From: a plasmid
Assembly: GCF_054482525.1 (NCBI RefSeq)
Contig: NZ_JBTHVG010000003.1
Direction: 5' to 3' (one strand)
DNA: 64,000 nt
The first letter of the stretch is position 1; every line of letters begins with the position of its first letter. The notes beneath the pieces are model-generated. The model was not told where the DNA came from, did no database searches, and worked only from the letters and a program-made list of their open reading frames with translations. Positions 13,551-55,575 of the stretch are shown piece after piece. The translations under genes were made by a program, and so were the position numbers.

Positions 13551-14735
13551 TCATGACTGTCCCTTGTTCATCTTATCAGCATGCTTACGCAGGTACTCTT
13601 TCAGGTCAGCATGAGCGTTGATGATATCGTTCATTTCATCATTGGTCAGAACAAGCGTGTAAGTATCAGTACTGACAGATTCACCTTCTTTAAGCTTGGC
13701 TTCTTCAGCAATACGTTCAAAAATCGGGATCGCGGTGTCTGCAATGACGGTCACAGTCTTTTTGTTCAGAACGCTGGACATGGAAGGTGCTTTACCTGCC
13801 GGGTTCTGTTTAGGAGCGCTGTCCTTTGGAGCTGGAGCCGGTTCCTGTACCGGTGGCGTATCCAGCGTCTCCGTATTGCTTTCATCGTTCAGTTGATCCG
13901 GTACCGGGGTGTTATCGGTAGTATCATCTGCCGGTTGCTCAGCACCGATGTTTTCCGGAGTCTGCGGATCTGCCATGCGCTCTTCTACCTTGGCAGCTTT
14001 GACGAATTTCAGCGTGTTTTTCGTCGCCTTGCCATAGATGGAGATCGCTTTGTTGATGTTATCTACCGCATCCTCACCGCTGTACATATACTCGTCCAGT
14101 GCAACGTACATGCTCACCTGATCGCTCACAAGCATGGTCTGTAGTTCAGAAGGCAGGTCCAGTACGCGAACCATCTGGCGAAGATGCTGCTCTGATTTAC
14201 CACGTTTTTTTGCCAGTTCCGCAAAGGTCTTAGGCTCTTCTTTATCTTCAACCAGACGCTTAATTGAAAGCGCTTCAGCTACGACAGACAGCGCCAGGTT
14301 GGAGTTGCCGGTCAGGGTGAAGAGTTCTGCTTTTGAAGCGCTACCGCGAAACTCTTCGCAGCGAATACGAGTAATGCGTTCACGCCCTTCTGCTTCCAGC
14401 TGGCGGTTTGCAATAGCGATGGAACGGATACGGCAAGCCCCCTGACGCAGTACAGGTACGCCATTAACCATCTGAACAACGATAGGCGTCACGCTGAACG
14501 GGTCTTCCATGTAGGCATCGGCCAGGCTGTTCAGGTGTTCCACAACGTGAGGCATTGAATAGTAGAGCTCGCCCATACCGGCCGTGCGGGTGTTAAAGCC
14601 TTCCTGCTCTACAACAACCGAAGGGTCAATGATAAGGCCGTTGCCTTTACGGGCACCGTTACCAGTGCGTTCCAGGTAACCACGAAGGCTGATTTCGTTG
14701 CTGTTGTTTTTTACTTCAGTTTCGATTGCGGACAT
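13551..14735 (-). CDS. ParB/KorB-family DNA-binding protein (orphan, no adjacent ParA)
   Basis: ParB N-terminal-like segment PIVVQMVNGVPVLRQGACRIRS (compare GERRxRA); HTH-like segment LRQMVRVLDLPSELQTMLVSDQVS; Pro/Ala-rich linker; two copies of the 13-bp palindrome lie just upstream. Confidence 0.6.
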   Translation of the reverse strand: MSAIETEVKNNSNEISLRGYLERTGNGARKGNGLIIDPSVVVEQEGFNTRTAGMGELYYSMPHVVEHLNSLADAYMEDPFSVTPIVVQMVNGVPVLRQGACRIRSIAIANRQLEAEGRERITRIRCEEFRGSASKAELFTLTGNSNLALSVVAEALSIKRLVEDKEEPKTFAELAKKRGKSEQHLRQMVRVLDLPSELQTMLVSDQVSMYVALDEYMYSGEDAVDNINKAISIYGKATKNTLKFVKAAKVEERMADPQTPENIGAEQPADDTTDNTPVPDQLNDESNTETLDTPPVQEPAPAPKDSAPKQNPAGKAPSMSSVLNKKTVTVIADTAIPIFERIAEEAKLKEGESVSTDTYTLVLTNDEMNDIINAHADLKEYLRKHADKMNKGQS

Positions 14736-15150: not shown

Positions 15151-15327
15151 TTATGCCGCCGACAGCTGGCCGTCAGTGCTTTGCTGTTCTGGTTTGACAG
15201 TTGGGGGATAACCGGCAGTTAGCCGCTGGCATTCCGCATCACAGAAAGCCCTGAGGTTGCTGAAGACGGACTCCATGAAATCAGCATGAGCATACGAGTC
15301 TACAGGACGTGTCTTGTTATCTTTCAT
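15151..15327 (-). CDS. Small hypothetical protein
   Basis: Internal ATG at 15327 preceded by GAGGAG; 58 aa. Confidence 0.35.
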   Translation of the reverse strand: MKDNKTRPVDSYAHADFMESVFSNLRAFCDAECQRLTAGYPPTVKPEQQSTDGQLSAA

Positions 15328-15836
15328 CTTGTTCTCCTCAATCATTATTAAAACCAGCGGATTTAGTTTCTGGCGCTCCATCTGCTGACCGGCTTTCCCA
15401 GAGAGCAGCGATGTGTCGGGTTCTTTTTCTCATTTTATCGTTTTCATCGGGCCCATCCGGGCGTATAAGAGACCGATTTGGCATGTTTAGGAAACGTACT
15501 GGCGTAATTAAAAGCTGAGGTTGGATTTGGAATAAAAGGATGCTTTTCCCGTTTGTCGGGTCTTTCGCCACCGCTGCACGATGATTCTGTCAGGCATTCT
15601 GCGCCCTCCCAGGCTGCACATCTGGAAACAAGCGTTGGGATGTTCCCTTCCCCTGCTCACCGTAGAAAGATCGGCAAGTCCCGACGGTCGTTCCGTACGA
15701 GCCGGGTCCAAATAATGAATAAATAAAACGCCGCTTCAATTGTATTGACAATAGAAGTCAGGAGGATCATAGTGTCATTCATGGTGCGGCTTTCACACCA
15801 CCGCCCCGGCGGTACCGGGCAGAACTGGAGTACCTC

Positions 15837-16781
15837 ATGAAACTTTCCCGTCAGACGACTTCTGATACTTCTGTTGATGGCCGTTCACGCGCATATGCCT
15901 GGGGCCGTGTCCATTATTTCATTATCGAACATGCACCAATGGCTGAGCTGGTCGCTATTGACGAGCTGCTGGAAAAAGCTGGCTGGAGCAATGACGGCTG
16001 TCCGAACTATGAGAAAGATGACGAGTTTGGTAATGCTGGTTACAGCTGTGGTTACTGGATCGATATTGACAGCGTGGGAAGCTTCAAGGCTGACTACAAA
16101 CGTCTTAAGGGGGAGATTAGTGCGCATATCGCCTCAAAGGCGGCAGAGGTGGAGATCCGCGTACTGGACTCGATGTCCGACAAAGAATGTAAAGATGTTG
16201 CCTCGGTGGCATCTACTGTTCGCCGTGACTTACGTACGCAGTCCGAATCGCTTCATTCACTGCGTACAATCGTAACGGTTGATCATTACAATCCCTATGT
16301 GACCACCAGCCGCCCGCTGAGCATTTCCGCCTGGACACTTATCCACGACTGTCTGAAAACAGGCACCATCAATGACGTCTGTTCACGGTTGAGTTCATTA
16401 ATCCTGCACTCTGAAGCCGCGATTGCCCGTTGTAAGGGAAGCTCCGACTACTCTTCGGAACACGCTCAGCTATCGTTTTTTGCTGGTAACGACTATGTCA
16501 CCAGACGCACCCTTGTTGATGCAGCTCACGAAGAGGCTCTGCGAATGAACCGCCGCTTTGATGAACGCATTGCAATGAACGCGGATTCTGATGCCAGAAG
16601 GCTCCAGTGCGAATTCAACCTTAGCAACCATGTCGTACAGCGTAGGACCGTTGAATCTGCTCATATCCAGGCACTCAATGAAGACGTCACCCGTTCACAG
16701 GCGGAACCACGCTGCCCTGGAAAGCTTCTTCTGAATATGACCAGTCATGAGGAAGTGCGGGACTCACTGAGCGCCTGTTAG
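15837..16781 (+). CDS. Hypothetical protein (first gene of a plus-strand 4-gene cluster)
   Basis: GGAG upstream; TTGACA-like -35 at about 15752; 314 aa. Confidence 0.5.
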   Translation: MKLSRQTTSDTSVDGRSRAYAWGRVHYFIIEHAPMAELVAIDELLEKAGWSNDGCPNYEKDDEFGNAGYSCGYWIDIDSVGSFKADYKRLKGEISAHIASKAAEVEIRVLDSMSDKECKDVASVASTVRRDLRTQSESLHSLRTIVTVDHYNPYVTTSRPLSISAWTLIHDCLKTGTINDVCSRLSSLILHSEAAIARCKGSSDYSSEHAQLSFFAGNDYVTRRTLVDAAHEEALRMNRRFDERIAMNADSDARRLQCEFNLSNHVVQRRTVESAHIQALNEDVTRSQAEPRCPGKLLLNMTSHEEVRDSLSAC

Positions 16782-16877
16782 TCCAGCGACACCCCCTGCG
16801 GCTCTACTACCGGGCCGCAGTCTGCTCCTGCCCAGATGGTGCCAGTGGTGTAATGAATTTGTTTAATAAGGCTAAGT

Positions 16878-17480
16878 ATGATGAATAAAGAACAACTAAT
16901 CGACAAACTGGAACGCGTGGTATGTGGTCAGTACTCCTACGAAATGCAGGAGCTTGCGTATTCGGCCCTCTGCTGCATTAAAGGCACCCCGGACGACTGC
17001 GCTAAGTTCCCTGTTACGCGTCCGCTGCCTGACACCTTAGTGGACGTATGGGACGAAATCGGGCAATACCTTGGCACAGGCAAAGCCATTGAAACTCGCA
17101 GTTGCGGCGTTTCGCTTCTGCTTCATGGACACTGCTACGATTCAAATCATGTGCTTTACTGGCGCAATGCTGGCGCACTTCCAGCAGCTTGCGATACGCC
17201 ACTGGCTGGTGGGTCTCGCAAACTGTTCACCTGCTCAGCCTGTGGAGTGGACGGTCTGGATGAACCACCTGAAACCAGTTGCCACTGCTGCACAGAGGGG
17301 GCCCACTGGGTTGAGAGCAGGCTCTTCACCTCCGGGCAGGCAGACCCTGAAGAATTTAGACCCGTGGCGGTCGTGAAAGAGTGTGCAGGCTCAACGCCGG
17401 ATGATCGGCTTATCTGGAGTGTGATTGAACAGCTCAACGGCGAACTGGCGGAAGGCGATAAACTATTTAAGCGACGCTGA
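16878..17480 (+). CDS. Cysteine-rich hypothetical protein
   Basis: 200 aa with many Cys (CxxC-like pairs). Confidence 0.5.
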   Translation: MMNKEQLIDKLERVVCGQYSYEMQELAYSALCCIKGTPDDCAKFPVTRPLPDTLVDVWDEIGQYLGTGKAIETRSCGVSLLLHGHCYDSNHVLYWRNAGALPAACDTPLAGGSRKLFTCSACGVDGLDEPPETSCHCCTEGAHWVESRLFTSGQADPEEFRPVAVVKECAGSTPDDRLIWSVIEQLNGELAEGDKLFKRR

Positions 17481-17533
17481 CAGATCACGGCAGCATTTAT
17501 AACAGACGAACTCCAGAATAATTTAAAGCAACC

Positions 17534-17890
17534 ATGAACATGAAAAAGCCCAAAGCTGCATTACAGAATGCCATGAAAGAAGATGTGCCAGCTGTGACAC
17601 AGATTCAGATGCGATCTACGGTTTCCAGAAAGGTTCGCTATGTAAAACAGGCAAATCGAGAGGGTCTGAAATTATCTGAGTGGATGTCGCGGCATCTCGA
17701 CGCTGTCTGTGATACCGCAGATGAGATTCATAAAGGCAAACGCTCAACTCCGGTTGCGCCTGGGAAGATTCCCCCAGAGGTATACCAGGTGATATACGAT
17801 CAGTGCGGCGGGTTCGTGGAGTGTGATGCTAATGCCCAGGTTATCTGGGAAGCCTGCCGTAATGCCATTCTTAACGGAGACAAAGGGTAA
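17534..17890 (+). CDS. Hypothetical protein
   Basis: 118-aa basic protein. Confidence 0.45.
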   Translation: MNMKKPKAALQNAMKEDVPAVTQIQMRSTVSRKVRYVKQANREGLKLSEWMSRHLDAVCDTADEIHKGKRSTPVAPGKIPPEVYQVIYDQCGGFVECDANAQVIWEACRNAILNGDKG

Positions 17891-17935
17891 ACGGCAGGTA
17901 TCGCCTGTCATTTTACCCTTGTGAGGACAATACTG

Positions 17936-18139
17936 ATGAACCATGAGAGCCGAACTGTATACCTGAACACGGCCATTGAGGCCCTGCTGAAAGCTGAGGC
18001 GGCTCTGAACGATCTGGCATTAGCCTATGAGCTTAAACCTGATGAAAAGGCAAGCGCATGCCATCCCAGAACCGGCACACTTTCCACTGCGTCCCAGGTA
18101 AAAAAACTCCGCCGTGTCCTTGAGAAGCAGAAGGTATGA
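17936..18139 (+). CDS. Small hypothetical protein
   Basis: ATG at 17936 with GAGGA upstream; 67 aa. Confidence 0.35.
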   Translation: MNHESRTVYLNTAIEALLKAEAALNDLALAYELKPDEKASACHPRTGTLSTASQVKKLRRVLEKQKV

Positions 18140-18545
18140 AGGGCTGCATCAGCCAGGCCCGGATATAAATACATGCTCTGCCAGGTGAGTACCACTGCCC
18201 GGTAGCCGAATGATAAGTTTTGATTTCACGGTTGCAATTTCTCCCTCTGGCATCACTGCTCCACGATGCACCCCGATCAGCTTAGCGTCTGAAAATGAAG
18301 ATGCACCGGACCTGCATGAAGCGGAACGGTGCCCAGCTGAGTGTTTGTGGGCACAATGAACCGCAATTTCATGATGGGAATGAAAGATGGCTGGTGGCCC
18401 GCTGATATGAACGCTTACCCTGCATAACGTTACTAACCACAATCTTTTCACTAAAAGAAAAAAGGGTTCCTCCGCTTTAGAGGAACCCTTTCAAAAGGTG
18501 CCGATGGCATACTAATCCACACCCTGAAAAGAGGGGGGTTGCCCC

Positions 18546-19884
18546 CATAAGCGCTAACTTAAGGGTTGTGGTATTACGCCTGATATGATTTAACGTGCCG
18601 ATGAATTACTCTCACGATAACTGGTCAGCAATTCTGGCCCATATTGGTAAGCCCGAAGAACTGGATACTTCGGCACGTAATGCCGGGGCTCTAACCCGCC
18701 GCCGCGAAATTCGTGATGCTGCAACTCTGCTACGTCTGGGGCTGGCTTACGGCCCCGGGGGGATGTCATTACGTGAAGTCACTGCATGGGCTCAGCTCCA
18801 TGACGTTGCAACATTATCTGACGTGGCTCTCCTGAAGCGGCTGCGGAATGCCGCCGACTGGTTTGGCATACTTGCCGCACAAACACTTGCTGTACGCGCC
18901 GCAGTTACGGGTTGTACAAGCGGAAAGAGATTGCGTCTTGTCGATGGAACAGCAATCAGTGCGCCCGGGGGCGGCAGCGCTGAATGGCGACTACATATGG
19001 GATATGATCCTCATACCTGTCAGTTCACTGATTTTGAGCTAACCGACAGCAGAGACGCTGAACGGCTGGACCGATTTGCGCAAACGGCAGACGAGATACG
19101 CATTGCTGACCGGGGATTCGGTTCGCGTCCCGAATGTATCCGCTCACTTGCTTTTGGAGAAGCTGATTATATCGTCCGGGTTCACTGGCGAGGATTGCGC
19201 TGGTTAACTGCAGAAGGAATGCGCTTTGACATGATGGGTTTTCTGCGCGGGCTGGATTGCGGTAAGAACGGTGAAACCACTGTAATGATAGGCAATTCAG
19301 GTAATAAAAAAGCCGGAGCTCCCTTTCCGGCACGTCTCATTGCCGTATCACTTCCTCCCGAAAAAGCATTAATCAGTAAAACCCGACTGCTCAGCGAGAA
19401 TCGTCGAAAAGGACGAGTAGTTCAGGCGGAAACGCTGGAAGCAGCGGGCCATGTGCTATTGCTAACATCATTACCGGAAGATGAATATTCAGCAGAGCAA
19501 GTGGCTGATTGTTACCGTCTGCGATGGCAAATTGAACTGGCTTTTAAGCGGCTCAAAAGTTTGCTGCACCTGGATGCTTTGCGTGCAAAGGAACCTGAAC
19601 TCGCGAAAGCGTGGATATTTGCTAATCTACTCGCCGCATTTTTAATTGACGACATAATCCAGCCATCGCTGGATTTCCCCCCCAGAAGTGCCGGATCCGA
19701 AAAGAAGAACTAACTCGTTGTGGAGAATAACAAAAATGGTCATCTGGAGCTTACAGGTGGCCATTCGTGGGACAGTATCCCTGACAGCCTACAAAACGCA
19801 ATTGAAGAACGCGAGGCATCGTCTTAACGAGGCACCGAGGCGTCGCATTCTTCAGATGGTTCAACCCTTAAGTTAGCGCTTATG
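18546..19884 (+). mobile_element. IS186 (IS4 family) insertion sequence, complete
   Basis: Terminal inverted repeats CATAAGCGCTAACTTAAGGGTTG at both ends; 11-bp direct target duplication GGGGTTGCCCC (18535-18545 and 19885-19895); inserted in a GC-rich palindrome. Confidence 0.9.
18595..19713 (+). CDS. IS186 transposase
   Basis: 372-aa ORF recognised as the IS186/IS4-family transposase, framed by the IS186 inverted repeats. Confidence 0.9.
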   Translation: MPMNYSHDNWSAILAHIGKPEELDTSARNAGALTRRREIRDAATLLRLGLAYGPGGMSLREVTAWAQLHDVATLSDVALLKRLRNAADWFGILAAQTLAVRAAVTGCTSGKRLRLVDGTAISAPGGGSAEWRLHMGYDPHTCQFTDFELTDSRDAERLDRFAQTADEIRIADRGFGSRPECIRSLAFGEADYIVRVHWRGLRWLTAEGMRFDMMGFLRGLDCGKNGETTVMIGNSGNKKAGAPFPARLIAVSLPPEKALISKTRLLSENRRKGRVVQAETLEAAGHVLLLTSLPEDEYSAEQVADCYRLRWQIELAFKRLKSLLHLDALRAKEPELAKAWIFANLLAAFLIDDIIQPSLDFPPRSAGSEKKN

Positions 19885-19907
19885 GGGGTTGCCCCCCTCT
19901 TTGTCAG

Positions 19908-20066
19908 CTACTTACCGGATTCGTAGGCCAGGATAGCAAATACCTCCCTTGTTCCGTCTTTCATCCGCAACTCGCAAAGCGAGTTTCGTGTGAGCCAGGT
20001 GAATATCAACAGCGTTAAACAAACTATTAATATGCACAAAACAATGGGTTGGTTCGGCATTTTCAT
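19908..20066 (-). CDS. hok: Hok/Gef-family type I toxin (plasmid hok/flm-like)
   Basis: [52 protein letters not shown] resembles plasmid Hok; upstream GCAAGGAGAAGAAGGCC-ATG and the overlapping mok-like start are conserved. Confidence 0.8.
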
Positions 20067-20164
20067 GGCCTTCTTCTCCTTGCATTTAAGCAGGCAAGAG
20101 GCTACGCTGTGTGTGACTAGCATACAGGGGCCTCGGGTTGTACTGACCCCAGAAAGTTGGACAG

Positions 20165-29795: not shown

Positions 29796-32180
29796 TTATA
29801 CGACCTGCCTGACCATCCTCATCAGAAGGCGGTTTAACAGTCCTTTCGCTGTCGGGCGATTGCTATCGACATAGTAAAAACCTGTTTTGGTCGTACCGTG
29901 AGCACTGCTCAGCACCCTCAGTTCCCAGATAACGTCACGGATAACGCCGCCATTTTCTGGCTTAAGGCATTCAGATAAATGGCGCATGAAACGAGCTCTT
30001 ACGGCACGGTAATAGCGGAACTCCTCTGGCTGGTTAGTATTTTCTTTCACCCGGAGTCGCTGGTTACACAGAGTTAGAACTGCATCCATCATTCCCGCCT
30101 TCAGCTTCGCCTGGATCGCACCTTGTTGCTGTTCCCTCTCACCTTCGAGTAACGTTAAGATTCTTTCTCCGAGTGCCGTCTTGTTGTGTACGTGCAACTG
30201 TACACAGGCAGCTACGCATGCCCAGAATCTGAACTTTTTTATCTGTCCACGCAATTTCCGGGCTACAACCTGACGGTATGCAGTATCGCTGAGTATTTTA
30301 AAACGCCGACTGGCAACCAGCTCTGGAAGCGACACTCTTTCGCCTATCCCCAGGCGGGAAAAGGTTTGTCCCCGTTGTGCGAGACGATGATAGACAGCGC
30401 CCTTCCCTTTTGAAATTCGGACCGCGCCATAACGAAGAAGATACTGAGCAGCAGTCGTTGGAGTAAACTCACCGTCAGCGATGCTCTGGCGTAACCCGTC
30501 GTATTCATGCCAGATAATCCAGGACGCCGTATCTTCTTCAACAGTCAGCTCATCCTCTTCCTCGAATGCCACGACGACAGAACTGCTCTCTCCGGTCTTT
30601 AGGCTACGTGAAGCCCTGGGGTCAGCCTGCCCGTCAAAATAGGTCATCAGCGGCAACGTATCAGTCAGTCCATCATAAGCTGTACCGAACCGGCCTCCGG
30701 GCAGTTTCATCCAGAGTGGAGCTGGCATTGGTGTACGGGCCACAGGCAGCATGTCAGGCTCATCCTCAAGAAGGTCCAGATCGGCCTCTTCCCAGACTCT
30801 GCGATAGATCTCAATTGCCCGAAACGGGCGAGGGTTGAAACAGTGCAACGACCAGAGGAAATCAACGTGGATCACGTTTGCTTCATGTACAAGCCGAAAT
30901 TGTGGCTCAGCCATACGACGGTTATAAGCCGTATCGTCCACCTCGCCGGAAAGTAGCTTTCTGCGATGCTTTGCCGCACGTCTGGCTTCAACATAATCAA
31001 GGCTGCAACAGACATGAAAAAGACGTTCAGTCAGGGACGAAGAAAAGATATTGGGTTGAAGACGCACATACCCGCCTTCGAACACTTTACGACCGATATA
31101 ATCCCGCAGGCTCCAGTCGTACTGGATCTTAGAAAGAAATCGCTGAAGACGACTTAGGCCTGCCTGATAACCATATTTCTCAGGGTCAGTGCGAAGGAGC
31201 GTTTCCATTGAATGGTCAACCCCTACGGCTGTGCAAAGCGAGCACCCATATCTAGCCCCACAAGCTGAGGTTCGCGTGGGTTTCTCCGGCGACCAGATAC
31301 ACTCTCCGGTGGCGTCTTTATAAAGCGTTGCCAGGCTGAAGTTATCCGGCATAAAGCTTGGTAAAGGGAAGCGGGATTCGGAACCACAGGCCATTAGAAA
31401 AGACCAGATGTCCTGAGTGCGCCACTCCTTTACTGGATAGAGTTCACCACCGTGCTCAGTCAGGGTTACTTTCCTCGCCTGCCCTCCCATTTTGAGGATA
31501 TTTCCGGCCCTTCGGGCACTTTCATCATCCCTGGAGCCCAGCATCAGGCATACCCTGCTTCGTACGGATGCCGGGGCGTTTTTTAGATAACGAGCTTTGG
31601 CCTTGCGCAGGGGGGCGATTTTGTAGTCGGTTGAGCACTGACGGGTTGAAGAATTAGTCCAGGTCGGAAGTCCACGTCCAGTCAGAATGCGGCCTACCCA
31701 GCTCTGCGTAAGAGACGGTTGGGCGACAAGGACTGTGACCGGTAGCTGGTGTTCAGCAATGAACATTCTAAGCTGGTTGAGAACCTGTGAAGCCTGATAG
31801 TGCATCTCAGGGTTTTCGATCAGCGTATCGGACATCTGAATGAAATGATGTTCGCTGATATTTGTGCCGTTACGTACTGCCCTGATCAATGCCATCAGAA
31901 ATAGGTGAAGAAGAGAATGGGAGTCTTTACCGCCACTGTATCCCACGCACATCGTCCATCCGTCCGTAATAGCCTGATAAATAGCAGATGTGGCTGACGT
32001 GACCAGAGAAGAAAGACTCACAGTCTCCTTTTCATCGGTATAGTTCAGATCGGCATCGGTTGTCAGGGTCTCCCAAACATCAGCCCATTTATCATGTTTC
32101 AAAATGGCAGCATTAGCCGCCTCAGGAAAAATAACTTCTGAGGGTAATTCAAGGAATGAGTCACTTTTTTCAATAAACAT
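29796..32180 (-). CDS. PP-loop ATP-pyrophosphatase (PAPS-reductase/DndC-like) domain protein with ~450-aa C-terminal extension
   Basis: PP-loop motif VGYSGGKDSHSLLHL; Cys cluster ACGARYGCSLCT; 794 aa; no dndA/B/D/E-like partners seen nearby. Confidence 0.55.
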   Translation of the reverse strand: MFIEKSDSFLELPSEVIFPEAANAAILKHDKWADVWETLTTDADLNYTDEKETVSLSSLVTSATSAIYQAITDGWTMCVGYSGGKDSHSLLHLFLMALIRAVRNGTNISEHHFIQMSDTLIENPEMHYQASQVLNQLRMFIAEHQLPVTVLVAQPSLTQSWVGRILTGRGLPTWTNSSTRQCSTDYKIAPLRKAKARYLKNAPASVRSRVCLMLGSRDDESARRAGNILKMGGQARKVTLTEHGGELYPVKEWRTQDIWSFLMACGSESRFPLPSFMPDNFSLATLYKDATGECIWSPEKPTRTSACGARYGCSLCTAVGVDHSMETLLRTDPEKYGYQAGLSRLQRFLSKIQYDWSLRDYIGRKVFEGGYVRLQPNIFSSSLTERLFHVCCSLDYVEARRAAKHRRKLLSGEVDDTAYNRRMAEPQFRLVHEANVIHVDFLWSLHCFNPRPFRAIEIYRRVWEEADLDLLEDEPDMLPVARTPMPAPLWMKLPGGRFGTAYDGLTDTLPLMTYFDGQADPRASRSLKTGESSSVVVAFEEEDELTVEEDTASWIIWHEYDGLRQSIADGEFTPTTAAQYLLRYGAVRISKGKGAVYHRLAQRGQTFSRLGIGERVSLPELVASRRFKILSDTAYRQVVARKLRGQIKKFRFWACVAACVQLHVHNKTALGERILTLLEGEREQQQGAIQAKLKAGMMDAVLTLCNQRLRVKENTNQPEEFRYYRAVRARFMRHLSECLKPENGGVIRDVIWELRVLSSAHGTTKTGFYYVDSNRPTAKGLLNRLLMRMVRQVV

Positions 32181-33686: not shown

Positions 33687-33726
33687 GATCATAACAAACA
33701 CACTACTACCAACTAATAACCTGAAG
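33687..33726 (-). promoter_or_regulatory. Conserved promoter cassette
   Basis: TCAGGTTATTAGTT then TATGAT upstream of the GTG at 33645. Confidence 0.45.
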
Positions 33727-35363: not shown

Positions 35364-36614
35364 TTAAGTCCGATACAGTTCGGCGAGCTCATCCAGCATG
35401 GGGTTACTCTTATATCCCGGTGCGGCCGTAAAAAGGTTTCGGGAAATCGCCAGCCACTCCATGATTTTGTCCGTCGCCAGCCAACGTCTGCCAAGTCGCT
35501 CGGCTGCGATGGGGACTTTATGCAAGCCAGCGAAGGGATCTACAACAAGATCTCCCGGCTCTGTCAAAAACTCAATCAGAAACGCTGCAAGCCTGGTAGG
35601 AGACGTTGCACCGTGCAGCGGAAAACCGAGCTCGCGGGCAATGGAATGGCAAAATCTCGTATCAGCGCAGCTATTGCCGTAAAACAAAGTATTCTTGGGG
35701 ATCGTTCCTTCTGTTTTATTTCCAAAGGAACCGCTTTTAAGCTGGTACGCCCCATCACCATAAAAGGTCGTGCGATTTTCACCGCCTGCTGCCTGCAATT
35801 TTAGATGCTGGTCTGAATGCGGTTGTAGTACACGTAAGTTGTTTGAACGAACCTTACTCGCATCATTGGTAAACCACAGCACAGGCTCATACGATGAGCA
35901 GAGCTGCACCCGTTGCTTACATGCCCAGTGCGTTGGCGATGGGGGCTTACTGCGATTCACCCACTGAAGCCTGTCCATGAGCTCAAGCCCCAGCTTGTCA
36001 CATAATGCCAGTGTCAGACGCTCCAGATACAGAGAACGTGAAGGCCTACCCCTATTAAAGCTATCTTGAGTGATATTCAATGCCACACTTGCGCCCGGTA
36101 CAAGCTGTTTCACGATCGGTTCGAGGATACGCAGAAGCCAGTCAATATAAGCCTGCTCGCCACGCCCCCCTCCGTGCCCGTAGTCTCTTGAATTTCGAAG
36201 GAGGTAAGGTGGCGAGGTCAGGCAAAGATGAATTTGCTCGGTGATATTGCTGAAGAAGGCATAGGCGTTTCCAAAAACCGATGCCCCAAGAGAAGTTGAG
36301 AAACCGACAACACAGAGCTTTTCCCATGACTCATGCAGGTTTGTTTTCGTCTTAGAGGCGTATCTCCAGACGCCCCGTTTTTCTGGAACGCGTTCGATGA
36401 CCCCGGCCTGACGGAGAGTCTGCTGAAACCAGCGAACCTTATGTTTGACGCCGCTGGTTCTGGTTTTATCTGACCCAAATTCTTTCAGTTCGTGCAATTC
36501 GGCATCCGACATGCCAGTTTTACGCTGCACTTCGCGATAAAGCTCGTCGTTGGTCAACGGCGATTCGGAGGCAGCGTAGATATGCGCAATTAAGTCCGTA
36601 TTAATCGTACTCAT
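35364..36614 (-). CDS. DNA methyltransferase (amino-methyltransferase, N6-adenine or N4-cytosine, beta-class order)
   Basis: Motif IV TSPPY precedes the SAM-binding motif DPFAG near the C-terminus; 416 aa; no adjacent restriction endonuclease recognised. Confidence 0.65.
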   Translation of the reverse strand: MSTINTDLIAHIYAASESPLTNDELYREVQRKTGMSDAELHELKEFGSDKTRTSGVKHKVRWFQQTLRQAGVIERVPEKRGVWRYASKTKTNLHESWEKLCVVGFSTSLGASVFGNAYAFFSNITEQIHLCLTSPPYLLRNSRDYGHGGGRGEQAYIDWLLRILEPIVKQLVPGASVALNITQDSFNRGRPSRSLYLERLTLALCDKLGLELMDRLQWVNRSKPPSPTHWACKQRVQLCSSYEPVLWFTNDASKVRSNNLRVLQPHSDQHLKLQAAGGENRTTFYGDGAYQLKSGSFGNKTEGTIPKNTLFYGNSCADTRFCHSIARELGFPLHGATSPTRLAAFLIEFLTEPGDLVVDPFAGLHKVPIAAERLGRRWLATDKIMEWLAISRNLFTAAPGYKSNPMLDELAELYRT

Positions 36615-41617: not shown

Positions 41618-44008
41618 TTATGTTTGAGGGAATTCTATAGCAAATGTGGCCGTGCCAGATTGACCACTTACAGCGGGAGTAACGGGATACGTGCGCTCTT
41701 CACCATTACCAAGATCCAGTGACAGCGATTTAGTTTCACCAGGCTGGACCGTAACTCCGGCAACCGTAACGCCGAACTGGGCATTTTTCTGAACAGTCAG
41801 GGTTCCGTTTAACTGTCCGGTAATGATAGAACCGTCCTGACGCCGCAACACACTGGTTCGGATGATGGCCAGCGGCGTGTTGTCCGTTGCTTTCAGTGCT
41901 ACGGCTGTGGCCAGCGTCTTGAGATTATCCAGCATAATCAGATTCGCAGGCTGGTAGGTAAAATTAAGCGTTTTAGTGGTCCGGTTACCTGATTCGTCAA
42001 TAGCCAGTGCCTCCAGATGATACATCTGTCCCGATTCGTCAGTGTTGGGGAAGATTCTGGGGTATTCCGGAATAAAGACATCCTTGGATAACGGCGTGAA
42101 TGCCAGGGTGACCTTTTCAGAGTTAGGTCCACCAGCGAGCTGAAGCGATGTCAGGGAAGCATCCCCAGAGGCATCAGTAACGCTTATGCGAAGGTTCTCA
42201 AGCCCTTTAACCAGTTTTCCTTCTGCGTCTGCGCCATTAAAACTGAACGCGATAACCGGAAGCGTTGAGTCAATTTTCAGCGGTGCATTAAGCGTTTTGG
42301 TTCCGGTGTTTCCAACAAGATCCGTGGCAGAGACGCTAACCACCGTATAATCCCCGTCCGGTAGACCAGCGTATGAGAAGGTGGCGTTTTTGGTTTTATA
42401 ATCGCTTTCACTGACGGTCACAGGCTTCAGCGTGAAAGGTTCCCCCCGGGCATTTTTAAGGGTGGCTTCGAAAACTTTGGTATCCCAGTAGCTGATGTTC
42501 CAGGCGTTGACGCGATCATTATCGGTGGCCGTCATAGTGATTGTCTTGGAGGCCTTGTTTACCTGAGCGACATTAACCACCGGTGGGTTGTTATCCCAGA
42601 TAACCGTAAAATTACCAGCAAGCGCATCGAATATGCTGTCACCATCTTTTCCCGAGTAAAGGTGCAGATACTCAAATCCTTTGTCACTGGTGTAGTTGAA
42701 GTTAACCGTCATCTCGCATGAACTTTGTCCGATAGGTATAGTGCAGAACCAGGCTGCATTTTTTACCGTTCTGAACTTTTGCACGTATGGTCGGGGTTCA
42801 GCGGTTACCTTTATGCGGCTAATGGTGGCGGTTTTAACGCTGATTGAGGCCTGAGTTAACCACTCACTGGTATCACTCCGGTACATCTCTTTAGCCACTA
42901 TCTTCGGGGCTATTTCCATCGCCGGGGCTGGAGTGAAGTTGAGGGAGTTATGATGAATTCGTCTTACTCCTCCTGCCAGAGTCTGGAATTCATGATAAGT
43001 ATCCCCCACATTGGGATATATGTATTTGAAAGTATAAATATTATAAGTGCTATCGGACGTCTGGAAATTCGAGTCCGCCCAGCCATATTTGGAACCGTTA
43101 ACAGCAGTAAAGTCACTTTTTTTCCTTAATACCCGTACGGAAATAGGGTTCTGGAAGACGGTCATGCCAGACTGATAAGTGACCCATGATCCGGTAGTGG
43201 CGTCCTGCACCTGGATGATATCGTCAGGCTTAACCCGATCAATTACGCTTCGGCGGCTTAGTTCGATCCTGTTTCCCGCTTTGTCATAAAGGTAGATCCC
43301 CACTTTATATTCAGAGCGGTTTTCCGGTGCCAGGGCATTGCTGCTTGCGTCGGCGACTTGAACGGTTACGCTACCTTCCACTGTATTAATTTCCGCTGGC
43401 TTTTTACGCTCCACTCCAGCGGCATCGGTTATGAAATATTCAGCATTAGCAAGCCCGGAACCTTTATCACTCAGTCCATTAAAGACCAGTGCCTGGACGC
43501 TGGCGTACTGCATACCGGCTGGTACTGAAGTGAAGATCGCTTCGCTGCCAAAGTTCCACCCGTTTCTCGTATAACTTATGGTACCCGTTGCCGGAGGCGT
43601 TCGGTCAATTGCAAGCGGGTAATCCTGCCGGGAGACCTCCTTCCCTTGCAAGTCGGTAATCACCTCTCTGAGGGTGAAGCTATCTTCTCCCATCGCTGGT
43701 ACGGTCAGAGTCTTGCCGTAATAATCAAAGCCTGTCGAAGATGTGGTACGGTCATCTACGGTAACCAGGCTGCTTTTCGTGCTCCAGATGAGGCTCCCGT
43801 CACTTTTCAGCAGACTGAGCGTAATATAACGGTCCAGACCGGAAATAACGGCAACGTCAAAGCTCGTTACCGGATTAATCCATACGGATGCAGGCGATAC
43901 GGTCTTTTTAACGTTCAGGGTATCTTTAAAGCTGAATTCTGCGATTTCAGCGGAAGCTCCTGCGCTGAAACCTGCAAATGCAATAAGCAGGGCTAGTTTG
44001 ATTTTCAT
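41618..44008 (-). CDS. Secreted Ig-like (Big-domain) surface protein, paralog 1 of 3
   Basis: Signal peptide MKIKLALLIAFAGFSAGASA with AGGAG upstream; repeated D-x-(A/S)GN Ig-like motifs; conserved ISGLDRY N-terminal and LDLGNGEERTYPV C-terminal segments shared with the other two. Confidence 0.6.
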   Translation of the reverse strand: MKIKLALLIAFAGFSAGASAEIAEFSFKDTLNVKKTVSPASVWINPVTSFDVAVISGLDRYITLSLLKSDGSLIWSTKSSLVTVDDRTTSSTGFDYYGKTLTVPAMGEDSFTLREVITDLQGKEVSRQDYPLAIDRTPPATGTISYTRNGWNFGSEAIFTSVPAGMQYASVQALVFNGLSDKGSGLANAEYFITDAAGVERKKPAEINTVEGSVTVQVADASSNALAPENRSEYKVGIYLYDKAGNRIELSRRSVIDRVKPDDIIQVQDATTGSWVTYQSGMTVFQNPISVRVLRKKSDFTAVNGSKYGWADSNFQTSDSTYNIYTFKYIYPNVGDTYHEFQTLAGGVRRIHHNSLNFTPAPAMEIAPKIVAKEMYRSDTSEWLTQASISVKTATISRIKVTAEPRPYVQKFRTVKNAAWFCTIPIGQSSCEMTVNFNYTSDKGFEYLHLYSGKDGDSIFDALAGNFTVIWDNNPPVVNVAQVNKASKTITMTATDNDRVNAWNISYWDTKVFEATLKNARGEPFTLKPVTVSESDYKTKNATFSYAGLPDGDYTVVSVSATDLVGNTGTKTLNAPLKIDSTLPVIAFSFNGADAEGKLVKGLENLRISVTDASGDASLTSLQLAGGPNSEKVTLAFTPLSKDVFIPEYPRIFPNTDESGQMYHLEALAIDESGNRTTKTLNFTYQPANLIMLDNLKTLATAVALKATDNTPLAIIRTSVLRRQDGSIITGQLNGTLTVQKNAQFGVTVAGVTVQPGETKSLSLDLGNGEERTYPVTPAVSGQSGTATFAIEFPQT

Positions 44009-44505
44009 GGGTTGTCTCCTGATCAGGTTCCCCATGATACTTTTTCAGTGTTCGAGATCTTTTCGGGAAAATAGCTAATTTTAATGTTTTTCTTTTCTGC
44101 CCGGCGGGACCTGTTTTGTTCCATTTTTATCAGTGAATGTAATGAGACCGATTCGTCCACTGTTAACAGTGTAAAAGCGAGGTTGAAAGCCAGCTTTGAG
44201 AAGGTTTTCAATAGCTGAAAAAAAATCTTTTTTGAGCATTGGTTTCAAGATGGTTTTCCTTTTATGCCCGGTGCCGCCGGGACGGTGGCATTAAATATAC
44301 GCCATGTAAGTAAATTAATTTTTACCCATTTGATTGTCAATACAAACAAAAAATAAACCATGTTTATTATTTTACCAGCGATGCTATTTTAAAGTCCGTC
44401 TAAAATAAAAAACCAAAAAGTTAAATTTGAAGCCATCCTTCCTAAATTCATTTCTTGCGCATATTAGCCCCTGCTTTAAGTATATAATTTTTGAAAAAGT
44501 TGTCT

Positions 44506-44545
44506 GGAGGTTATTAGCTCGTGCATCTGGATTGTTAATATAAAG
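44506..44545 (+). promoter_or_regulatory. Conserved promoter cassette, plus-strand copy
   Basis: GGAGGTTATTAGCTC then about 17 nt to TAATAT, upstream of the gene at 44569. Confidence 0.45.
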
Positions 44546-52410: not shown

Positions 52411-52422
52411 ACAGGTTTAAGC

Positions 52423-53660
52423 TGACAATGGTAGTGATTGGATGATCTCACTACTGTTGTCACTCAGTTCTTTGAGCGGACCCTTCCCTCGGTTGGTCGG
52501 CATTAACAACGGTAGTGACTCGATTGGCTCACTGCCATTGTCATCGTGTAAATGACGTACCTTATCAGCTCAGCTGAAAGCAATGACAACGGTAGTGACT
52601 CTAATTGCTCACTGCCATTGTCGTCGTGTCTATTGAGAGCCTTATCAGTGCACCTGAAAAGCAATGACAACGGTAGTGATTCTAATGGCTCACTACCGTT
52701 GTCACCGTGTGTATTGAGAGGATGGTCCACTTAACTGGACGTATATGACAATGGTAGTGACTTTAATAGCTCACTACCATTGTCGGTGTGTGAATTGAGA
52801 GGATGAGCAGCTCAGCTGTACGTCCATGACAATGGTAATGACTTAATGAGCTCACTACCGTTGTCACCCTGTTAATTAAGAGGCTCATCTGCTCTTCTGG
52901 AAGGCTATGACAACGGAAGTGACTTGCTGGGCTCACTGCCATTGTCGCCGTATGAATTGAGAGGATCATCCGCTCTTCTGGATGGCAATGACAACGGTAA
53001 TGACTTAATAGGCTCACTACCATTGTCACCCTGTGAATTGAGAGGATGATCTGCTTAACCAGACGGCCATGACAACGGTAGTGACTTTCTGGGCTCAATA
53101 CCGTTGTCACCCTGTGAGTTAAGAGGTTGACCCGCTCTACTGGACGGCCATGACAACGGTAGTCACTTTCTGGGCTCACTACCGTTGTCGCCATATAGAA
53201 TGAGAGGAGCATCAGCTCAACTGAACGGCAATGACTACAGTAATGAGCTGGATGAAGCATAACCATTGACATCTGGCCCAACCGGAAGCCGTATTCGCCA
53301 ATCCAATCGAGATTCACAATGGCCGTGACTCGCCGCATTAAGTTCCGGTGTCCTCCCAAAGCTGAACGCACACTCGGAGGACAATGACAATGCCAGTAAG
53401 GTACACATCATTACCATTGTCACTATAGCTACCAGAGAAGCCGGGATTTGAATGTCGATGGTAGTGAGTGGGTCAACTCACTGCCATTGTCACCCCGTTA
53501 CGATATTTTCCGTTGGATGTACTGGCCAATGAAGTAAAGCGTAGAAACCGGGTGTTAACAGGTGACTCAGGAGAAAGCGTTGAATTTCGCAATCTCGATC
53601 TACATAGGGTGGTAGAGAACAATGACAACGGTAATGACTTTTGACTCATTACCGTTGACG
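52423..53660. repeat. Tandem array of about 15 units (~80 bp each), each containing an inverted pair of iteron-like 15-mers
   Basis: tgacaacggtagtgac...ctcactaccgttgtca repeated at roughly 80-bp spacing; lies 3' of repA, comparable to incA-type copy-control iteron arrays. Confidence 0.7.
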
Positions 53661-53734: not shown

Positions 53735-54823
53735 TTAGCTGGCGTTGCTGTTCTTTTTCTGGCTTCGAAGACTACGAATATAGCGCAGTTCTTCAGCGGT
53801 TAAATCATGGACGGTAAGAACATCATCGCCGTCAATCGGGTCAGCTGGTGGGCATAACTCACCTTCTAAAACAGAAGACCCTGAGTTCTCTTCTTCATCT
53901 TCAACCACTTCTAAAGGAGGCTGAGTATTGTTCAAATTCAGATCGGGATCCCGCTTATGAATCTGGAAGTATACTTTTCCGTCTTTCTTAATTTCGGTGT
54001 ACTTGAGGTATCCTATCGATGCCAACTCTTCAAGAGCCTTTCTCACGGTAGCATTCTGACTATTTGCTCGTGTTTTGAGGTTCAGACGATTTTTCAGCCG
54101 AGTAAGGGATATCGGTATAGGATTTGGCGGTAATGACTCTATGAACGTATAGAGAGCCTGGGCGCTTTCCTTCTTGGCCAACTCCTTAATTGCCTTCAGC
54201 TGCATCAAAACCTTATGATCGTATTGATAGAGCTCGAAAATCTTAGGATCAACCTGAAGGACAACCTGATCTGATTCCGGGTCTAACAGGGCAGACTGTA
54301 CCAGATGCGTTGTATAGACTTTGGACGAGTTATTACTGGTGAACGACAAGGTAACGGATGCTAACCTGCGTAAGGAGGCGTCTATACGTTTTCTGGACGC
54401 TGTAGATGAGCGATAATTTTCAGGCGTACATAGCTTGAGGAATTCAGTGAATTTTAAGCTTATCGTGTCATTGTTAATCGGATGATTGGCATAGGTTCGA
54501 ATGATGCCCATCCACGTCTTAAAATCTACTGACATATTAAGACGCTCACCGACAATTGAAATATTGGTGAACCCCTCGCTCTCCATTAAAGAGAGCGTCT
54601 GTAACTCTTTCGTTGCGTCAAAGCCAACCGTTTTATATTCCCGATTTTGACGCCCCACACTCTTTGGTGATGGGACGAACAGCCCGAGCCGCATCAAAGC
54701 AATAGACTGCACCGTACGGTTGCTGTTAGGACGCAAAATGATGTCTTTACCTGATTCTTTCTCTCTAACAGAGAAAGCCCTGGTGACCAGGTCCTGCTGC
54801 TCAGTATCTTTCTCTTTAGTCAT
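53735..54823 (-). CDS. repA: Replication initiator RepA (RepFIB/P1 RepA family, iteron-binding)
   Basis: LMRLGLFVP, DFKTWMGII, LVQSALLDPESDQVVLQVDPKIFELYQYDHKVLMQLKAI and ESAQALYTFIESLP match the RepFIB RepA pattern; iterons on both sides. Confidence 0.8.
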   Translation of the reverse strand: MTKEKDTEQQDLVTRAFSVREKESGKDIILRPNSNRTVQSIALMRLGLFVPSPKSVGRQNREYKTVGFDATKELQTLSLMESEGFTNISIVGERLNMSVDFKTWMGIIRTYANHPINNDTISLKFTEFLKLCTPENYRSSTASRKRIDASLRRLASVTLSFTSNNSSKVYTTHLVQSALLDPESDQVVLQVDPKIFELYQYDHKVLMQLKAIKELAKKESAQALYTFIESLPPNPIPISLTRLKNRLNLKTRANSQNATVRKALEELASIGYLKYTEIKKDGKVYFQIHKRDPDLNLNNTQPPLEVVEDEEENSGSSVLEGELCPPADPIDGDDVLTVHDLTAEELRYIRSLRSQKKNSNAS

Positions 54824-54892: not shown

Positions 54893-55575
54893 TGGATCAT
54901 TGTGATGATCCATATCTGTGCATAAGTTCTACCTAAAAAAACGACTCCACTCATTAAAACTTGGCAAAAACTCTTTGCATACAATGACCTGCAACTCTTA
55001 TCAACAACGGATCAGATCAAGTTAAAAAGATCTAATGAAAAGTCACTACTATTGTCGCTCTGATCACTACTGATGTCAAAAAACTCATTACCAACGTTAT
55101 AATAATCACTACTAATGTCAAAATAATCACTACTGTTGTCACTGATCACGTCTCAGGCCTTGTGCCGTCTGGCCTGGAGGCAGCGGGGATCTCTTTTGAT
55201 CTATCAGGAACACTAAGGTACTAATTATTGGAACTACCTTGTGGAAAATGGGGATAAATAAATGCTTAGTTCTTATACAGGTCTCAACTTGCCTCCCTGA
55301 TAAAAACTGTCGTCAAAGCTAAATCGCAGCCACAGGCATTTTCGGTGGATAAATTTTTGAGAAATAGAAGCATACATGCAGACTCGTGTCGCAAGTAATT
55401 GAAAGTAATGATTTATTTAAATAATGCGAGTCACCTTACCTCACAGTGGAAGTTTAAGTCTAACCTCACTACCATTGTCACTTAAAATCATTACCAACGT
55501 CGAAATAGTCTCTACCATTGTCTTTTAAGTCACTCCCGTTGTCACTTATGTCGCTACTGTTGTCAGTGACAATGC
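54893..55575 (-). promoter_or_regulatory. Putative replication origin and repA control region
   Basis: GATC cluster (54893-55040); five direct ~21-bp iterons TCACTACnnTTGTC (55043-55145); DnaA-box-like GGTGGATAA (55345-55353) within an AT-rich stretch; five more iterons (55466-55575). Confidence 0.55.

Follow-up and report, generated by a model that had tools for sequence, protein, structure and literature searches.

Results

A Conserved Four-Gene Unit on the IncHI2 Backbone

A cluster of four plus-strand genes, called here g1 to g4 (positions 15837-18139), lies in a 64,000-nucleotide stretch of plasmid DNA (contig NZ_JBTHVG010000003.1 of assembly GCF_054482525.1, hereafter the window). We hold with moderate confidence that the cluster forms an accessory operon, still intact, in the backbone of IncHI2/IncHI3 plasmids, headed by a repeated promoter-leader cassette and probably playing a role in plasmid transfer or establishment. 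The window itself is IncHI2 plasmid backbone, and in a megablast search many large IncHI2 plasmids from E. coli and Salmonella matched the segment 15700-18545 with 100% identity. An earlier note, made from the sequence alone, had predicted four plus-strand genes at this place. Four non-overlapping open reading frames (ORFs) were indeed present, and the same four coding sequences (CDS) are listed in the RefSeq annotation of identical plasmids, one as a DUF5417 domain protein and three as hypothetical proteins. More than 1000 records already list these genes, as hypothetical proteins. Their description as the only plus-strand genes inside a minus-strand block was accurate for the annotated genes between approximately 8.9 and 44 kb, apart from the transposase gene of IS186, which is also on the plus strand.

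The cluster was matched by 1015 plasmid records, 980 of them with a query cover of at least 80% (megablast). Since 1126 records were positive for RepHI2, approximately 90% of these carry the cluster by record counts. Among the plasmids typed as conjugative, 955 records had the cluster compared to 969 with RepHI2 (approximately 99%); for those typed as non-mobilizable the numbers were 60 and 157, respectively. Nearly all conjugative IncHI2 plasmids carry the cluster and transfer-defective ones have often lost it, a relation which is a correlation only.

All four genes were under purifying selection. The ratio of nonsynonymous to synonymous substitution rates (dN/dS) between the window and the other IncHI2 lineage, represented by pSPRC-Echo1, was 0.21, 0.15, 0.14, and 0.14 for g1, g2, g3, and g4, respectively. 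Compared to the IncHI3 plasmid pNDM-CIT, values of 0.29 for g3 and 0.10 for g4 were obtained, and the overall range was 0.10-0.36.

The plus-strand cluster of pNDM-CIT is larger, with ten genes, the last four being the counterparts of g1-g4. Genes g1, g3, and g4 have syntenic orthologues there, in the same gene order and with hok convergent downstream in both plasmids. The identity was 65% for the N-terminus of g1, 62% for g3, and 60% for g4. The g2 slot is occupied by an unrelated 189-amino-acid (aa) protein, and the IncHI3 g1 is devoid of the C-terminal 200 residues, approximately. As IncHI3 replaces g2 and shortens g1, the unit is modular. Shine-Dalgarno-like purine runs precede g1, g2, and g4, with a weak one before g3. 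The selection on all four genes and the three IncHI3 orthologues support the view, already taken in the earlier note, of a discrete and intact plus-strand unit with its own promoter, probably co-transcribed.

A Repeated Promoter-Leader Cassette Upstream of g1

The cassette head covers positions 15735-15836 on the plus strand, and was recognised from a promoter scan, from its conservation between IncHI2 and IncHI3, and from a second copy at 44345-44265. The -35 hexamer TTGACA (15745-15750) is located within the 13-mer TTGTATTGACAAT and is followed by a 17-nt spacer and the -10 hexamer CATAGT (15768-15773). With a start placed shortly after the -10, the leader would be approximately 55-60 nt long; it ends 15 nt before the g1 ATG. 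The near-consensus -35 announced in the earlier note is present as part of this site (15745-15773), but the hexamer match was no better than chance, with four promoter-like sites in the region compared to 5.8 expected in the scan. Because the hexamer match alone does not exceed chance, the case for the promoter is made by its conservation and its duplication.

In the 1.1-kb upstream region, blastn aligned two islands between IncHI2 and IncHI3, one of which was 15735-15824. The core TTCnATTGTATTGACAATAGAAGT...GAnGATCATAGT was essentially invariant, with flanks that were 73-80% identical or unalignable. In IncHI3, the promoter heads the ten-gene plus-strand cluster.

The second copy (44265-44345, minus strand) is located 28 kb away from the first one, the cassette extending over 15740-15821 (plus) and 44345-44265 (minus) in the window. 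It carries the 13-mer at 44333-44345. A 23-nt box of the leader, CACCGCCCCGGCGGTACCGGGCA (15799-15821; consensus CACCGyCCCGGCGGyACCGGGCA), was found exactly twice in the window, at 15799-15821 on the plus strand and at 44265-44287 on the minus strand, compared to 0.00 expected. This second cassette lies 17 nt upstream of a 55-aa ORF, which is followed by the gene of an 805-aa immunoglobulin-like (Ig-like) protein (41618-44035, minus strand) with Big_3_2, Big_3_3, and DUF4165 domains. Related Ig-like proteins (RSP) of IncHI plasmids are needed for conjugation (PMC6764697). No further copy was found in the approximately 180 kb of the IncHI2A plasmid p14EC029b that were examined. The IncHI3 plasmid pNDM-CIT has two full cassettes and one leader-only copy, each before a different gene, and the last one precedes its DUF5417 gene.

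The five leaders were folded together with RNAalifold, which drew two hairpins. Hairpin 1 was variable, with three compensatory pairs. In hairpin 2 (CCCGG-N5-CCGGG, 15805-15819, within the 23-nt box) the CCCGG/CCGGG stem was invariant and the loop variable over the five copies. A palindrome, ATTGT-N4-ACAAT, overlaps the -35 and is perfect over 7 + 7 bp in IncHI3; allowing one mismatch at most, it was seen six times in the window compared to 3.1 expected. Neither a single-stranded DNA promoter nor a large hairpin was apparent in the flanking non-coding DNA, where the fold z-scores of -1.6, -0.4, and -2.0 were unremarkable.

Two further observations were made on the genes that follow the cassettes. 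The 55-aa ORF and a 184-aa gene behind one of the IncHI3 cassettes (cassette D) have the first codons KPMLK in common, which suggests from the alignment that the cassettes may move along with gene heads. For the first gene of the pNDM-CIT plus-strand cluster (locus L003, 4311-4748), the start given by RefSeq overlaps the conserved leader, and an ATG near 4365 (MTHDIDTL...) appears from the cassette alignment to be the true start.

The Proteins Encoded by g1-g4

As proposed in the earlier note, the four proteins were compared to the profiles of Pfam (E-values up to 10 being considered as well), NCBIfam, PHROGs, and PADLOC, and only DUF5417 and function-less PHROGs were matched. No hydrophobic segment was visible in any of the four. 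A literature search for DUF5417 and for the RefSeq protein accessions returned nothing on these genes.

The first gene, g1 (15837-16781, plus strand), encodes a soluble and acidic protein of 314 aa, for which the AlphaFold2 model reached a predicted local distance difference test (pLDDT) score of 83. Its N-terminal part is an alpha/beta DUF5417 domain (approximately residues 1-95), its middle is helical, and two "AHxxAL" repeats are located in its C-terminus. The match of g1 to Pfam PF17438 passed the threshold marginally (24.7 bits for a cut-off of 23.9, residues 51-91), and DUF5417 was matched in all 30 aligned g1 homologues, with a best E-value of 1.9e-16. In PHROGs, g1 matched phrog_1254 (E = 7e-8). 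Its relatives, 56 representatives from an exhaustive HMMER search, share residues 1-100 or 1-250 and have variable C-termini, in which repeated AHxxAL motifs are found. The contigs of the long homologues were plasmid-like or phage-plasmid-like and their context was uninformative. Against PADLOC, g1 gave a single sub-threshold match, to ZorB (E = 0.009, 13.6 bits), and g2, g3, and g4 gave none.

In the early region of T4-like phages, a small ORF with the DUF5417 domain lies between gp32 (gene 32) and frd, and matches were present in 684 phage records. The domain was also seen in a 460-aa protein of the Cronobacter phage JK004 and in a 225-aa protein of an IncN plasmid, which is 47% identical to the N-terminus of g1. 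The g1 domain has the conserved signature of the T4-like phage proteins, MKLxR...GxxHxFxIEnA...CPxY...G.SCG.WI...FKxxYK, whereas its helical extension of approximately 220 residues with AHxxAL is missing from the phage and the IncHI3 versions.

The second gene, g2 (16878-17480, plus strand), corresponds to the Cys-rich protein of the earlier note, and its 200 aa do contain 13 Cys. Residues 109-152, approximately, aligned without gaps to a module of 84 enterobacterial prophage or chromosomal proteins, many of which have DUF551. In g2 this module reads SRKLFTCSACGxxGLDEPxExxCHCxxxGAHWVE (residues 112-147, approximately), with a zinc-knuckle-like CxxC...CxC arrangement, and the consensus over the relatives was SRKLFTCSxCGxxGLDEPxExxCHCxxxGAHWVE. 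The four cysteines C119, C122, C135, and C137 were invariant in all 19 distinct variants of the module. Short strands were drawn there in a low-confidence model (pLDDT of approximately 50-56), and no profile matched. From these positions, g2 is predicted to carry a zinc knuckle. The resemblance to the lambdoid-prophage DUF551 (PF04448) mosaic proteins is limited to these 40 residues or so and their invariant Cys ligand positions, as g2 has no DUF551 domain. The N-terminal 108 and C-terminal 50 residues of g2 were seen in IncHI2 only.

The two last genes encode small basic proteins. Gene g3 (17540-17890, plus strand; 116 aa from the preferred ATG at 17540, 118 aa from an alternative ATG at 17534) is confined to IncHI-type plasmids, with seven protein clusters in 5.8 billion sequences. 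No DNA-binding family was matched in Pfam, NCBIfam, or the PDB sequences. By eye, the segment QIQMRSTVSRKVRYVKQANREGLKLSEWMSRHLDAV fits the N-terminal strand-helix-helix pattern of ribbon-helix-helix-like proteins, with no profile match. An AlphaFold2 model of g2, g3, and g4 joined by linkers was unusable (pLDDT of 35); it drew no N-terminal strand in g3 and showed g4 as helices. A W.ACR.A.L.G motif of g3 is shared with lambdoid-prophage proteins, a weak resemblance (E = 0.007 in one comparison; phrog_5117, E = 0.004). Two candidates were set aside along the way. AcrIF25, a PDB sequence match to g3 with an E-value of 0.087, was dismissed as a chance match. A single split gene was dismissed for g2 and g3, which are in different frames, g3 being kept beside an unrelated gene in IncHI3.

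Gene g4 (17936-18139, plus strand) encodes 67 aa from the preferred ATG at 17936, with GAGGA 9 nt upstream, or 72 aa from an alternative GTG at 17921. It was represented by 27 clusters, every identified source being IncHI-type or enterobacterial. It matched phrog_19934 (E = 9e-11), although no phage genome was matched by tblastn.

Comparison with the IncN CUP Regulon

The IncN relative of g1 is located in an instructive setting. The IncN locus has five to six promoter and leader repeats, one of which ends 8 nt before its DUF5417 gene. They form the CUP-controlled regulon, which is under ArdK-dependent control (PMC5371602, citing Delver & Belogurov 1997 on the leading region of pKM101). As in the IncHI plasmids, several small operons, whose genes are mostly uncharacterised, have at their 5' ends a copy of a promoter with a leader of approximately 60-70 nt, one unit drives a DUF5417 protein akin to the N-terminus of g1, and the unit length and layout (-35, -10, GC-rich leader, Shine-Dalgarno, ATG) are alike. 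The sequences themselves differ: the four IncHI cassettes and five CUPs aligned only at the promoter hexamers and scattered bases, with no convincing homology. The IncHI2 cluster also differs in being devoid of ardA, ardB, ardR, and ssb, in not being adjacent to oriT, and in having two cassette copies only. ArdK, a MucR/Ros-type protein, gave no tblastn match in the window, in approximately 130 kb of the rest of p14EC029b, or in the IncHI3 and ST1 loci. The IncHI arrangement resembles CUP in layout and would be a putative member of this class at most. The idea of a regulatory or establishment module, put forward in the earlier note, is plausible and would be compatible with these data because the IncN DUF5417 relative lies directly behind a CUP repeat and the IncHI promoter-leader is itself a repeated cassette.

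The 3' End: a Swapped Spacer, the hok Terminator, and IS186

Between the IncHI2 lineages, homology stops at 18142, 3 nt past the g4 stop codon, and restarts at 18457, where a hairpin starts (blastn). The 314 bp between these breakpoints (18143-18456) form a lineage-specific non-coding spacer. It was present in 545 records, all with at least 99% identity and nearly all with no gene listed under the match. In its place, the other IncHI2 lineage has a different segment of approximately 1.1 kb with an additional plus-strand gene of 106 aa. The synonymous divergence (dS) of g4 between the two lineages was 0.35, compared to approximately 0.03 for g1-g3; such a difference would fit a recombination breakpoint at the operon's 3' end, beside the swapped spacer.

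A bidirectional hairpin had been described at about 18466-18500. A terminator was called there on the minus strand only (18460-18492), with a 14-bp stem followed by TTCTTTT. On the plus strand the stem is followed by TTTCAAAAGG and no terminator was called. On the hok-sense strand, the stop codon, the GGGGGGCAACCCCCC hairpin, the big hairpin, and the T-run were conserved in IncHI2-ST3, IncHI2-ST1, and IncHI3. The stem of the big hairpin showed compensatory changes and similarity ceased right after the T-run. In the site empty of IS186, the terminator is located approximately 60 nt 3' of the hok stop codon. Because it is conserved together with hok in three lineages and homology ends after the T-run, the hairpin is the intrinsic terminator of the hok mRNA. 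Contrary to the earlier suggestion, the IS186 site is not the functional end of the cluster, since the 314-bp spacer and the hok 3' untranslated region (UTR) intervene.

The insertion sequence IS186/IS421 (18546-19883, plus strand) interrupts the GGGGGGTTGCCCCCC hairpin in the 3' UTR of hok. It shows the features used for the recognition of IS186 (IS4 family), namely terminal inverted repeats (18546-18568 and 19862-19883), a target duplication of approximately 10-12 bp in a GGGG(N)CCCC site (here the 11 bp GGGGTTGCCCC, at 18535-18545 and 19884-19894), and a transposase ORF (372 aa). RefSeq names it IS4-like IS421. The site is empty in p14EC029b, and the junction was found in approximately 109 plasmid records. 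IS186 is a separate, recent, and polymorphic insertion in the hok 3' UTR, unrelated to the operon. It parts hok from its own terminator. Its transposase gene is co-directional with the operon, and read-through from the operon could feed it.

The mok/hok frames (19908-20123, minus strand; hok at 19908-20066) were identified by NCBIfam NF007279, with 121.1 bits for a cut-off of 73. The 71-aa mok frame overlaps hok, and both are convergent with the operon. A second insertion sequence, IS150, starts at 20139, 15 nt upstream of the mok ATG, as it does in the reference plasmids of the lineage. As IS150 abuts the mok start, the locus has lost its promoter, leader, and sok region, and by its sequence is probably inactive here. 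Rfam gave no match for the window at gathering thresholds, or for an intact hok locus at E <= 1. The Hok ORF, the overlapping Mok frame, the structured 3' UTR, and the strong terminator are those of enterobacterial plasmid hok/sok loci. The present locus differs in being cut by IS150 on the 5' side and by IS186 in the 3' UTR, and it is outside the four-gene cluster. The mok-leader segment (20064-20139) was 87% identical to a second place in pNDM-CIT (locus L003, 13571-13645) and not to the syntenic hok, which hints at recombination between hok loci.

The Surrounding Window

The left edge of the window falls within the MobH relaxase gene, and p14EC029b (NZ_CP024143; IncHI2A, MOBH, MPF_F) was used as the reference map. 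The order on this plasmid is the MobH relaxase, the TraD coupling protein, four other plus-strand genes, and a long series of small minus-strand genes. The mobI gene and a 759-bp intergenic region upstream of it are approximately 1-2 kb to the left of the window. This region is likely the oriT, by analogy with other MOBH elements (PMC10838148), and on the p14EC029b map it would be approximately 17 kb to the left of the cluster. A literature search on the leading region, nick site, and oriT polarity of IncHI plasmids returned nothing relevant, including in the supplements of Samuel et al. 2024.

The minus-strand block includes genes for a ParB-like protein, hok, an orphan methylase, and a protein with a 3'-phosphoadenosine-5'-phosphosulfate (PAPS) reductase domain. 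The orphan N6/N4 DNA methylase (35364-36614, minus strand) has an Mrr_N domain, and the PAPS-reductase domain belongs to a 794-aa protein (29796-32180, minus strand). Methylase, PAPS-reductase, ParB-like, and hok genes are part of the content described for plasmid leading regions (PMC11541004). A small divergent gene of 58 aa (15151-15327, minus strand; WP_001371930.1 in RefSeq), present in both IncHI2 lineages, separates the ParB-like gene from the operon. At the equivalent place, pNDM-CIT has a CDS of equal size.

Several families of repeated motifs were visible in the window. The 13-bp palindrome AAAAGTWACTTTT had 12 sites with at most one mismatch (3144, 4874, 9776, 14825, 14951, 29678, 34727, 38939, 47928, 50152, 58543, and 58608) compared to 0.11 expected, and approximately eight of the 12 were intergenic by reading of the ORF map. 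The ParB-like gene (13551-14735, minus strand) has two of the sites upstream of it, at distances of 90 and 216 nt, in the region that it shares with the operon, and a near-copy is found upstream of the IncHI3 DUF5417 gene (pNDM-CIT locus L003, near 6903). Such an arrangement recalls the network of KorB/OB operators in IncP plasmids, the ParB-like protein being a candidate binder. The RepHI2 initiator gene (53735-54823, minus strand) lies between arrays of 81-bp repeats (approximately 9-11 copies, each with the inverted repeat TGACAACGGTAGTGA...TCACTACCGTTGTCA) and of 21-bp repeats, at 52420-53640 and 55018-55570, which presumably represent the iterons of the replicon. Stretches of the form GCTAATAACCTsnnnG (GGAGGTTATTAGC on the coding strand) recur at 33712, 38817, 41237, 23709, and 44488-44519, apparently just upstream of several genes, and may be a common translation-initiation region.

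Discussion

A Model for the Operon

We propose that transcription would start at the sigma-70 promoter TTGACA-17 nt-CATAGT (15745-15773), with a leader that has two predicted stem-loops and would end just before the Shine-Dalgarno of g1. The same cassette heads the Ig-like operon and, in IncHI3, several genes of the plus-strand cluster. This common cassette implies that the operons are probably co-regulated, by a factor that would recognise the -35 palindrome, the leader hairpin, or both. The transcript would yield four soluble cytoplasmic proteins, g1 with its DUF5417 domain and helical repeats, g2 with its putative zinc knuckle, and the small basic g3 and g4. The scan found no strong plus-strand terminator after g4, and transcripts probably run through the 314-bp spacer toward the convergent hok, and here into IS186.

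The proteins would act on host or incoming-DNA biology during transfer or establishment, and would not be needed for replication or vertical maintenance. In an evolution study of the IncHI2 plasmid pJXP9, viable clones had deleted the "conjugative transfer region I", between insJ and umuC (PMC9599605). On the p14EC029b map the insJ-umuC interval would contain the cluster, which suggests that it is dispensable for vertical maintenance. A role in transfer or establishment appears the most likely one because the only relatives of the proteins are found behind CUP promoters in an IncN plasmid, among the early genes of T4-like phages, and in mosaic proteins of lambdoid prophages, and because nearly all conjugative RepHI2 plasmids keep the cluster.

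Several points weigh against such a role. The chief one is orientation: should the transferred strand be the one from which the minus-strand block is expressed, g1-g4 would be in the wrong direction for expression from single-stranded DNA. The cluster would also be approximately 17 kb from the likely oriT, on the relaxase side. Physical linkage to the transfer region Tra1 alone may account for its retention in conjugative plasmids. The cassette copies found in IncHI2 are only two, and the covariation of the leader hairpins comes from five sequences, too few for statistics and suggestive only. The analogy with CUP would be one of architecture and not of sequence homology. No ArdK/MucR homologue was found in the window or in the approximately 180 kb of p14EC029b covered.

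In a bolder form, which we regard as speculative and rather unlikely, the IncHI plasmids would have a CUP-like system of their own. The cassette would couple the DUF5417 operon to that of the Ig-like conjugation protein, both being switched on around transfer or entry. As effectors, the DUF5417 and zinc-knuckle proteins would serve in host takeover or anti-defence, and they would belong to a family common to T-even early genes and to IncN CUP-controlled genes.

Alternative Explanations

It is also unlikely, in our opinion, that the cluster is phage-derived cargo (a "moron") ensuring, for example, phage exclusion or addiction, or of no benefit at all, and kept by its linkage to Tra1 and hok. 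A phage origin would account for the modules shared with T4-like phages, the Cronobacter phage, and lambdoid prophages, and for a GC content of 51.6%, compared to 46-47% in the neighbouring block. The exchange of the g2 slot and of the g1 C-terminus between IncHI2 and IncHI3, and the variation in cluster size from four genes to ten, would also fit. However, there were no PADLOC defence matches and no toxin-like or membrane features were seen. The promoter-leader shared with a backbone operon points to integration in plasmid regulation, and a function is favoured by the purifying selection and by the occurrence of the cluster in nearly all conjugative RepHI2 plasmids.

A more specific proposal, to which we give little credit, makes g3 a repressor that would bind ATTGT-N4-ACAAT, autoregulate the operon, and cross-regulate the Ig-like operon, the cluster then mainly controlling transfer-associated surface proteins. 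The occurrence of TTGTATTGACAAT at both promoters, the perfect 7 + 7 bp palindrome of IncHI3, the co-conservation of g3 with the promoter in IncHI2 and IncHI3, and the strand-helix-helix pattern read by eye in g3 are consistent with this. On the other hand, the searches of g3 against Pfam, NCBIfam, and PDB sequences matched no DNA-binding family, the palindrome with one mismatch was only twice as frequent as expected (six compared to 3.1), and g1, g2, and g4 would be left unexplained.

Could the hairpin described at 18466-18500 nevertheless be a bidirectional terminator, stopping the four-gene transcript as well and making the cluster a self-contained unit? Convergent genes often have a common terminator, and this hairpin, with its strong 14-bp stem including six G-C pairs, follows g4 with no other plus-strand terminator intervening. 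This is improbable, since only three T follow the stem on that strand and the scan made no call, the hairpin varies together with hok and stays next to it in three lineages, and the stretch between g4 and the hairpin differs from one lineage to the next (314 bp, approximately 1.1 kb, and approximately 130 bp).

Finally, that the four are non-functional ORFs or remnants of a disrupted larger gene, a possibility raised in the earlier note, is extremely improbable and largely refuted by the dN/dS values: the lack of functional annotation and the presence, in g2 as in g3, of a short motif also seen in single, longer prophage proteins would agree with it, but dN/dS is far below 1 in all four genes, their frames are intact in approximately 980 records, and they have their own start codons, with g2 and g3 in different frames and g3 kept beside an unrelated IncHI3 gene.

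Significance for IncHI2 Plasmids

IncHI2 plasmids are major carriers of mcr-1, mcr-9, oqxAB, and genes for extended-spectrum beta-lactamases (ESBL), and their backbone is mostly annotated as "hypothetical". In this backbone, the cluster stands out as a selected operon equipped with a promoter, in what is otherwise ordinary plasmid backbone biology. What is new is the assignment of the hairpin and of IS186 to hok, which removes a misleading reading of the anatomy, the repeated cassette with a CUP-like layout, and the links of DUF5417 with phages and IncN plasmids. The common cassette offers a concrete handle on co-regulation with the Ig-like protein operon. If an establishment or anti-defence role holds, it would provide a function for a domain that hundreds of T4-like phages, as well as IncN plasmids, possess.

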